Source of the DNA: Candidatus Saccharimonadota bacterium
GTDB lineage: Bacteria; Pseudomonadota; Gammaproteobacteria; Enterobacterales; Enterobacteriaceae
DNA length: 32,000 bases
Reading direction: 5' to 3'
Assembly: GCF_014857065.1 (NCBI RefSeq)
Contig: NZ_CP046533.1
Coordinates: 1-32,000 of the forward strand
Each line of letters begins with the position of its first letter. The first letter of the stretch is position 1. Shown here piece by piece: positions 27,192 through 29,767 of the stretch. The position numbers and the translations under genes were made by a program. The notes under the pieces were generated by a model, which worked only from the letters and a program-made list of their open reading frames with translations, made no database searches and was not told where the DNA came from.

Positions 27192-29767
27192 ATGGGTTAT
27201 TTTGTAATATCACAATCCATATAAGAATGATTAAATTCCCTGTTATTGCAGAGTCACTGGGTTAAGGCAAAAGTTATTGATAAATATTTAGGTAATGATT
27301 ATCTTGTGAGATCATGTTTTAGTTATATTCGTGATCTATTAATTGATAATGGTAAGTGTAATGTCCTCTTTAATGACATAAGAAAAGTCGTAGATTATTT
27401 AGATGATCATGAATTTTTATTTAAGTATATAGTTGTGGATCCATATTCCGAATGTTGTAACTAAATATGAAATTTTACTTCATAAAGAAAAAAATTGTTA
27501 CTGAATTAAAATTTTTATCTAAAATGATCAATCATATTTATTATGTTACTAATTTGGATCAGTGGAGGTGAAGTTATCGTTTGGTGTTTTACGTTCAGTA
27601 ATTGATGAAAAGATGAAAAATTCAGTATGAGTAATTTCATGAAATTACTCATACTACTGTCATAAAAGGTTTGAATATCCTGGTACACTAAATATTGCTA
27701 AAATGCATGTCAACAGTTAAGGCGTTTTGTAAATGATTGAATATTAGGGTTTATGATCTCGTTATTCTTGTAGAAACAGATTGCAAGTAGATTGCCAGTT
27801 GGTCGTGCACAATTTGCGGTAATAAAGTTCATAGTAGAATGTAAAAAAAGATTAAAAATTTTGTATTAATGAAATATTGGAAATCATATGTTAATTTAGA
27901 AGTTTTCAGTAAAGATCAAATTAAATTTCAAGTTACTCATACAAATGATAACTTGTTGAAGTTTACTAATAATTTTTAAGTTTAAGAAATTCAAAAAATC
28001 CTTAATTGATTTATAATGTATAATTAAAGGGAAAATGATGGATTTATTTACCATAAATTTCCTGTGTCATTCGTTATCTCAATATTACAACAGATTATTA
28101 ACCTTTATCTGGGATGTTCTGTAAGAGAGATCATGATATTATCTCAAAATTTATATGAAACTAGATTACAATTTATATGCTTGTTGATTTTGTCAATCTA
28201 AGTAAATCTGTTTTGTATATTGGATGTTTTTATATTACTAAAAATTATGGTAAGATATTTGTCTAATTTACTTAATCAATATATTAGTGAGCATGGTGTT
28301 CAAGAAGTTTATGAGGTTATTCGTTTTTTTAATGTATATATTTTATCAAAACATATACAAAGTTTAGGTATTAATGTAAGTAAATCATATCACTTGATTT
28401 GAAGTTAATTTATTGCCTGTTCAACGTAATTGTCTAAATGTATAGATACTAAGGTTACGGTAAGTGTAAATGAGTTTAATTATGTATCAGAATAAAATTA
28501 ATTTGTTTTGATGGGTGGTTAAACCATGCTAAATCATCATTTTTAAAGATTATCAGCATGTTTTATTCAGTTTGACTGTTGGTTAATACTTAAGATTAAA
28601 AAATTTTTCTAGTCAATGTTTTACTCAACACCATTTTGTTATAAAGAAGCTTCTTTTTTGGTTAAAAACTACAAAAAAGAAATGTTGGTCGTTCTTTAAC
28701 ATATGCTACTGTTATTTCTATGATTTAGGAACATGGACACGTGCGTATTCATAATTTGTATTTTTATATGGAAAGAGGTGAGTAAAATTGTAATTGGTCA
28801 ATTAGAGAAGAATTTATAAATTAATGAATTATAAATTTACTGCTAATATGTTAAATTTACCTGATTAGATTGCTAAAGAGCAATAAGAATGAAAAAGTAT
28901 TAGATAGTTTTATTAATTTTGCCAAACAATTAAACATTGCTGAAAAATATTTAATGGTCAGAAATATACAATCTTCTAATTTTTTTTTAGTGATTATTAT
29001 TTTTGCTGTGTATTATGTGGTTTTAAAATATTTATAAAAACAGCGCTTAATGGTATTTTATTGTTTAAGATATATATATCGACTCTATCAATAGAAAATG
29101 GTGTAAAATATAATTAATTTACTTTCTATAAGAAAGGCAGTTGTCTGTGTTGTTTGTTGCATTAAATATGATGTAACTGTGGAGGGTTATTTAATTAATT
29201 ACGACAAGAATTATGTATTTGTGTTAATAGTTTATTATTTGGCACTTATATAATTAAAGTTAGTGAATTTTGTGTGTAATATTATAATATTTTTAAAAAT
29301 GTGAAAGATGTAGTCACGATATGTATTTAAAATTTGGTTGATTTAGGAGATTTATGTTTTGTATCAATTAACAAATCTTATAGAAATATTCGTAATATTT
29401 TACCTCAAAGTGCAGTTATACATCCAGAAAGCAATATTAATTTCTTTTTCAGAACTTGCATGTAAAAATTTTCTACTTATTTTATTTTTTGTATAATGGT
29501 ATATTTGGGATCTTTAGTTGTTAATACTTTTTCTAAATTTCGTGAGATTAGATTCTTTTTAATTGAATATTTATTTCTATTTCGTGATAAATTATCCCGA
29601 ATTTACGTTATTTAGTAGATATTTTTATACAATATGCGTATATTGTCAAAGTTATATTAAAATTTTACCGTATAAAGAAACAGCAACAATCTTCTTCAAG
29701 ATTGGATAATGGATTAAAATTTTTTTTGATTATTTTTATTAATGAACAGTGACAAATTAAAAAAATG
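27192..29767 (+). pseudogene. topA: DNA topoisomerase I pseudogene: nearly full length, with many stops and frameshifts
   Basis: Collinear similarity to E. coli TopA from N- to C-terminus:
- MGYFVISQS (E. coli MGKALVIVES)
- VKAKVIDKYLGNDYLVRSCFSYIRDL ([26 protein letters not shown])
- KIVTELKFLSKMINHIYYVTNLDQWR* ([27 protein letters not shown])
- FHEITHTTVIKGLN (FNEITKNAIRQAFN)
- NACQQLRRFVND*ILGFMISLFL*KQIASRLPVGRAQFAVIKFIVE ([44 protein letters not shown])
- FQVTHTNDN (LQVTHQNDK)
- QEVYEVIR (QEAHEAIR)
- LMNYKFTANM (LMNYDFTAQM)
- KCERCSHDMYLKFG (KCEKCGSEMHLKMG)
- final ...EQ*QIKK (GKWVEGKK)

Verified lesions are listed in the topA finding. The position between trpE and ribA matches E. coli synteny. 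Confidence 0.9.
27624..27655. repeat. perfect 32-bp palindrome inside the topA pseudogene
   Basis: AGTATGAGTAATTTCA (27624-27639) is followed directly by its exact reverse complement TGAAATTACTCATACT (27640-27655), with no spacer. Confidence 0.95.

Follow-up and report, generated by a model that had tools for sequence, protein, structure and literature searches.

A full-length relic of topA, inactivated many times over, between trpE and ribA in the Blochmannia of the ant Colobopsis nipponica

In Blochmannia, topA and topB are unique to B. turneri and have been lost in parallel from B. obliquus and the Camponotus symbionts; the ortholog table has gyrA and gyrB in each of its three columns and, in the portion available to us, no parC/parE row (Williams & Wernegreen 2015, PMC4389277). 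The same study assigned 15 pseudogenes to B. obliquus, one of them topA (covered to 82%, with 6 frameshifts and 25 stops by tblastn; Table S1), gave the local gene order as ribA_pseudo / cysB / topA_pseudo / trpE, and listed neither an intact topA nor an intact topB in the curated gene table of this symbiont. Buchnera BBp and BCc are also without topA (Brinza et al. 2013, PMC3571970), and gyrase may have assumed both functions, as proposed by Gil et al. (2004; cited in PMC3571970). Here, we describe a relic of topA in the trpE-ribA interval of the Blochmannia symbiont harboured by the ant Colobopsis nipponica. The relic lies in a window of 32,000 nucleotides, the whole stretch of DNA that was analysed, taken from a genome of 728 kb. 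The announcement of this genome (CP046533; reads SRR12768939; Illumina, 232x; 28.7% GC) reported that it has no inversion compared with the Blochmannia of Colobopsis obliquus and did not mention pseudogenes (PMC8086219).

The longest open reading frame (ORF) listed for the trpE-ribA interval encodes 72 aa, and the GC content there falls to 0.20-0.26. An earlier interpretation made from the nucleotides without database searches (hereafter, the sequence-only reading) had assigned this stretch to a full-length, multiply inactivated topA, and tblastn, alignment scores, DNA alignments and Pfam agreed with that assignment. The similarity to TopA was significant and collinear: with E. coli K-12 TopA as the tblastn query, six collinear high-scoring segment pairs (HSPs; E-values of 1e-20, 6e-16, 1e-5 and others) connected aa 4-857 with 27237-29743 in all three plus-strand frames, with the collinear similarity being weak (24-27% identity) over aa 536-857. 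The intact B. turneri TopA was also aligned by a purpose-written frameshift-aware protein-to-DNA aligner, with eight shuffles of the same DNA as the control. Residues 1-863 aligned to 27227-29764 with a score of 1001, while the shuffles scored -33 ± 28 (about 36 standard deviations lower). The orthologous locus in other Blochmannia was reached through TrpE homologues, and in two of these genomes the DNA was likewise collinear with the relic over its full length, with 59-61% identity to the intact B. turneri topA over about 2.5 kb (E 2e-171) and 63% identity to the B. obliquus pseudogene in a one-piece alignment (E 0; 2585 bp there, 2541 bp here). Remnants of the Toprim motifs were readable by eye (VIAES...KAKVIDKYLG and HIYYVTNLDQ-GGE). 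In the alignment with E. coli, the Tyr of ITYMRTDS, which we take to be the catalytic Tyr319, was retained and the next Arg had become Leu. The position of the relic also fits topA, as the gene order trpE-topA-(cysB)-ribA is common to E. coli, B. turneri and B. obliquus. A blastn search of the interval against complete E. coli genomes gave zero matches because divergence at the DNA level is too great. Collectively, the stretch from 27227 to about 29773 is almost certainly a nonfunctional relic of the gene for the type IA topoisomerase I, which most likely died before the split of the two Colobopsis symbionts and then drifted neutrally, with gyrase alone presumably coping.

A topoisomerase cannot be made from this relic. 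In agreement with the many further stops that the sequence-only reading had noted, 13-19 in-frame stops and 20-32 frameshifts were counted along the homology path, depending on the frameshift penalty (-10 to -20); each plus-strand frame contained 58-80 stops, and an uninterrupted frame of about 860 codons was not found. The first disabling lesion was a +1 insertion at codon 11-12, which places the TAA at 27263-27265 in frame after 12 codons. Two pairwise alignments to B. turneri, done independently, both put this insertion at nt 33, and the protein-guided alignment gave a frameshift at codon 12 in both Colobopsis relics. All of the triplets and runs that the sequence-only reading had listed exist in the sequence (TAA 27222, TGA 27228, TAA 27462, A7 27488-27494, TGA 27569 and TGA 29750), but its start codon (ATG 27192) and its framing of the first two stops were wrong. 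With the true start at ATG 27227, the TAA at 27222 lies upstream of the gene and the TGA at 27228 overlaps the ATG out of frame; these early stops had been miscalled because a downstream frame was extended too far upstream. The remaining lesions were recovered by alignment, with the frame change placed at about 27465 appearing as a frameshift at 27453, that of the A7 run at 27493, the break in the Toprim acidic motif with TGA 27569-27571 at 27566, and the Trp-to-TGA change at 29750-29752 as a stop at codon 857. The 3' end had been set at 29767, which is roughly but not exactly right, as the ancestral stop aligns at about 29771-29779.

The inactivation of topA probably occurred at or before the split between the symbionts of C. 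nipponica and C. obliquus, as suggested by the shared first frameshift together with a flat divergence across codon positions. The comparison of sister intervals, which the sequence-only reading had put forward for dating the loss, yielded an intact topA in B. turneri and, in B. obliquus, a relic with the same first lesion: both relics carry the +1 frameshift at codon 11-12 and the identical premature TAA. Identity between the two relics at codon positions 1/2/3 was 0.60/0.66/0.63, showing no bias, whereas the neighbouring functional trpE of the same pair gave 0.84/0.91/0.66, so that the relic stands at about the level of the third positions of trpE. Since positions 1 and 2 were not better kept than position 3, selective constraint would have lasted only briefly, if at all, beyond the split. 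In this scenario, the insertion at codon 11-12 would be the candidate first hit, stopping translation after 12 codons. The dead gene has drifted neutrally ever since, gathering AT-biased substitutions, stops and small frameshifting indels.

A history in which topA was inactivated independently in the two lineages after their split, with the matching frameshifts arising as parallel hits at mutational hot spots, is considered rather unlikely, although it accords with several features of the locus. Nearly all of the other lesions, including the great majority of indels, are lineage-specific, the neighbouring genes have decayed differently (ribA is dead in B. obliquus and cysB is gone here), and parallel loss of the same genes is a main theme in Blochmannia (PMC4389277). 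The identical +1 insertion within one 6-nt stretch, followed by the identical TAA, argues against two separate events, as does the lack of any extra conservation of codon positions 1 and 2, compared with position 3, between the relics. Exactly matching codons provide a further argument: same-sign frameshifts were found on codons 12, 138 and 748 in both relics, where 0.2-0.35 would be expected by chance (P 0.001-0.006). A three-way MAFFT alignment gave 12 shared indels, a count that was discounted because progressive alignment forces gaps into both relics together; the codon-11 insertion was the only one confirmed exactly by the pairwise alignments.

Several observations weigh against the reading of the interval as a topA relic that died before the split and left gyrase in sole charge. 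The frameshifts at codons 138 and 748 lie in A/T runs in which the local alignment is ambiguous, and both are gone at the strictest penalty. In-frame stops common to both relics numbered zero, and the case for ancestral inactivation thus draws mainly on one lesion and the flat codon pattern. As for the identity of the gene, the frameshift-corrected conceptual translation matched Pfam Topoisom_bac (PF01131) over profile positions 7-395 of 411 with 116.7 bits (cut-off, 35.1; E 1.7e-33), but this translation was TopA-guided and therefore carries some bias towards TopA. Toprim (PF01751) reached 18.9 bits, below the Pfam gathering cut-off of 23.1, and the zinc-ribbon domains (PF01396, PF21372 and PF08272) were not found in the conceptual translation at a Pfam E-value of 0.01 or less. 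The scope of the data matters as well: the analysis covered 32 kb of the 728-kb genome, and in a protein search with B. turneri TopA as the query, that protein was the only one from Blochmannia among the 120 matches listed, which were saturated with Serratia.

The relic has retained nearly the whole length of the gene, as the sequence-only reading had claimed (2541 bp, compared with 2592 bp for the intact B. turneri topA). All indels relative to B. turneri are of 8 bp or less; they add up to a net change of -51 bp in this relic and -7 bp in that of B. obliquus, with no large deletion. A low deletion rate in this lineage, proposed on the same grounds, was borne out inside the relic and by the multi-kb Camponotus spacers, but not next door, where the interval of the intact B. 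obliquus cysB (L083 5142-6116) is about 740 bp shorter here. No CysB similarity was detected in 29774-30472 by tblastn with the E. coli and B. obliquus proteins, and the comparison of this spacer with the B. obliquus DNA gave weak, non-collinear AT-rich matches only. In the three Camponotus symbionts compared, ribA is followed by 2484, 3051 or 2554 bp of noncoding DNA (18-20% GC) and then by trpE. Searches for a residue of TopA in these spacers gave no match by tblastn, an nhmmer E-value of 1.7 and aligner scores at the level of the shuffles; permissive blastn returned non-collinear AT-rich noise only, on both strands.

Such persistence could be taken to mean that the DNA has been kept for another role, as a spacer or topological insulator separating the trp and rib transcription units or as a source of a noncoding RNA or small protein, since full length is kept in two lineages, the Camponotus symbionts also retain 2.5-3.1 kb of noncoding DNA at this position, and one ORF has a GenBank protein accession. 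We regard this as very improbable. Rfam, tandem-repeat and tRNA scans of the trpE-ribA interval found nothing (zero Rfam family matches), promoter-like sites were fewer than in shuffled sequence (25 vs 38), and the relic evolves at a neutral rate. The 72-aa ORF, which terminates at TAA 27462-27464, gave no Pfam match when scanned alone, and its counterpart in B. obliquus is interrupted by stop codons. Among the Camponotus symbionts, the spacers differ in length and align with one another only over the first 270 bp or so next to trpE, their sole conserved part.

The possibility that topA still functions, with the lesions being sequencing or assembly errors or being bypassed by transcriptional slippage or programmed frameshifting, as has been suggested for Blochmannia genes with a single homopolymer frameshift, is already effectively refuted. 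At least one frameshift lies in the A7 run, and genes with a homopolymer frameshift as the sole defect have been regarded as functional (Williams & Wernegreen, PMC4389277); however, the relic has no fewer than 13 in-frame stops and 20 frameshifts, most of them outside homopolymers. Substitution equal across the three codon positions, a GC content of 24% against 31% in the intact orthologue, and changes in the Toprim motif and in the neighbourhood of the catalytic site argue against function in the same way. A corrected assembly with an open frame, the outcome that would have overturned the sequence-only reading, was not found: in the Logan assembly of SRR12768939, two contigs matched the window with zero mismatches over 23845-27653 and 27626-32000 and were thus identical across the whole relic. 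This agreement, together with the 232x coverage, speaks against an error in sequencing or assembly. The Logan contigs derive from the same reads, assembled independently; they thus rule out a fault of the assembler, whereas a systematic error in the reads would persist, an implausible source for more than 30 lesions. The Logan contigs break and overlap by 28 bp (27626-27653) because a perfect 32-nt palindrome of the relic falls there. Its two halves, at 27624-27655, are AGTATGAGTAATTTCA and TGAAATTACTCATACT. In the intact gene of B. turneri and in B. obliquus, the orthologous stretch is no more than a quasi-palindrome, and the perfect form found here suggests that the palindrome may have been completed by a hairpin-templated (template-switch) mutation.

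Two plus-strand genes of about 2.6 kb, topA and acnA, occupy the E. coli K-12 trpE-ribA interval, and both were accordingly tested as the identity of the relic. An origin from acnA (891 aa), which adjoins ribA in E. coli and has nearly the same length on the same strand, is excluded by the absence of any tblastn signal for E. coli AcnA in the interval, against the six collinear HSPs for TopA, and by the Pfam assignment to Topoisom_bac; a cysB relic was rejected likewise, E. coli CysB giving no tblastn signal there. The coordinates of the topA relic, its lesions and the surrounding features are collected in Table 1.

Table 1. Coordinates of the topA relic, its lesions and neighbouring features (window positions unless a locus extract is named)
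Feature	Position	Strand	Remarks
topA pseudogene	27227..~29773	+	tblastn, frameshift-aware alignment, orthologue DNA alignment and Pfam on conceptual translation; GC 24%
Ancestral ATG start of topA (MIKFPVIAESL...)	27227..27229	+	same place in the alignment as the ATG of both orthologues (intact B. turneri topA, B. obliquus pseudogene)
72-aa ORF, "hypothetical protein" GN160_00115 (QOI11032.1, WP_192380368.1)	27246..27464	+	N-terminal (Toprim) fragment of the relic; exact-sequence look-up
First disabling lesion, +1 insertion in the SPAKAK codons	27258..27265	+	7 nt vs 6 in the intact gene; three-way DNA alignment
A7 homopolymer with +1 frameshift	27488..27494	+	frameshift at codon 90, position 27493
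Toprim acidic motif break	27566..27571	+	DLDREGE reads NLDQWR-TGA; homology returns as GGEVIVW after a +1 shift
Perfect palindrome, 32 nt (16 + 16, no spacer), in the relic	27624..27655		repeat search; terminator-like match
TGA for Trp	29750..29752	+	B. turneri TGG (Trp), B. obliquus TGC; codon 857, seven codons before the ancestral stop
trpE	25135..26694	-	intact, 519 aa, QOI11031.1; flanks the relic on the left
trp promoter/operator block, 41 bp (TTGACA ... AACTAGTTTACTAAT)	26810..26850	-	90% identity to B. obliquus
Anonymous AT-rich spacer, ~700 bp, relic to ribA	29774..30472		B. obliquus has an intact cysB at the same position
ribA	30473..31075	-	intact, 200 aa, QOI11034.1, 75% identity to E. 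coli RibA; flanks the relic on the right
Camponotus ribA-trpE spacers	L085 7517-10000; L090 2950-6000; L091 3447-6000		locus extracts

The genes flanking the relic show their own patterns of retention and decay. Upstream of trpE, the 41-bp block can be matched to the trp promoter-operator of E. coli (TTGACA ... AACTAGTTTACTAAT vs AACTAGTTAACTAGT), and the rest of the intergenic region cannot be aligned with B. obliquus. No trpL-like leader peptide was noticed on reading the region upstream of trpE, where no dedicated search was run. The anthranilate synthase component II (trpG, 197 aa) and the phosphoribosyltransferase (trpD, 335 aa) are encoded by separate ORFs at 23511-25133 on the minus strand; these functions are fused in the single TrpD of E. 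coli K-12, and other Blochmannia loci also have two genes. A further protein accession, QOI11033, seems to belong to the trpE-ribA interval. On the other side of the relic, ribA is a pseudogene in B. obliquus (L083 4276-4855) and intact here (30473-31075). The literature also reports B. obliquus to be incapable of riboflavin synthesis, so that the provisioning of this vitamin may differ between the two Colobopsis symbionts. The pattern of cysB, opposite to that of ribA, indicates lineage-specific decay of the neighbouring genes. Elsewhere in the window, 1.45 kb between xthA and hns (14791-16236; 20-23% GC) is free of ORFs, and topB/ugd/galU stand at the xthA-hns position of other Blochmannia in the published ortholog table (PMC4389277). 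No similarity to E. coli TopB or GalU was detected at 14791-16236, and a topB relic near hns, where B. turneri carries its topB, was rejected, as the sole TopB match (E 0.054) was the topA relic itself.

Topoisomerase I is needed in E. coli unless its loss is compensated. In the C. nipponica symbiont, supercoiling would presumably be managed by gyrase alone, as the literature has proposed for other insect symbionts without topA. The sequence-only reading had linked the decay of topA to altered supercoiling or compensation, which is sensible but holds lineage-wide and is already published, rather than being specific to this genome. It is conceivable, though on balance doubtful, that gyrase is the sole topoisomerase acting on the chromosome of the two Colobopsis symbionts, as on that of the Camponotus ones, with neither topoisomerase I or III nor parC/parE, as far as the available portion of the published ortholog table goes. 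The relic and the intact B. turneri gene bracket the time of loss; if this reading were true, the lineage and B. turneri would form a natural before-and-after series, which could be used to find substitutions in gyrase or nucleoid proteins that may compensate for the loss of topA. The relic is real but ordinary. A topA pseudogene at the same place in a sister symbiont was published in 2015, insect endosymbionts living without topoisomerase I are already in the literature, and no new question is opened. The value of the present observation lies mainly in annotation, as the public record labels a fragment of the relic "hypothetical protein", and in dating, as the newly recognised copy is a second, independently decaying one of a published pseudogene and bears on the date of the loss.

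Placed beside the known systems, the locus presents three stages of gene death: topA is intact in B. turneri, it is a full-length relic in the Colobopsis symbionts, and the Camponotus symbionts have an anonymous spacer (2.5-3.1 kb) in its place. In the Blochmannia endosymbiont of Polyrhachis turneri (CP010048), the intact topA (863 aa) also adjoins trpE; its open frame of 863 codons contains the Pfam domains Toprim, Topoisom_bac and zinc ribbon, and its GC content is 31%, in contrast to the window relic, which has no open frame and 24% GC. The closest counterpart is the B. obliquus pseudogene (CP010049), which lies at the same locus in the same orientation, between trpE and (cysB)/ribA, and is also full of stops and frameshifts. 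The copy described here is more decayed, with an alignment score of 1001 against 1389 and a best tblastn E-value of 3e-25 against 1e-43, and its surroundings differ: cysB is undetectable and ribA intact here, whereas in B. obliquus cysB is intact and ribA is a pseudogene. This copy also appears to be undescribed, being absent from the genome announcement and annotated, in one fragment, as a hypothetical protein. The Camponotus Blochmannia and Buchnera aphidicola BBp and BCc are, similarly, obligate Enterobacterales endosymbionts of insects that lack topoisomerase I and have kept gyrA and gyrB. In those Buchnera a recognisable topA sequence is gone, and in the Camponotus symbionts topA can no longer be recognised, whereas in the C. 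nipponica symbiont it is still recognisable from end to end.

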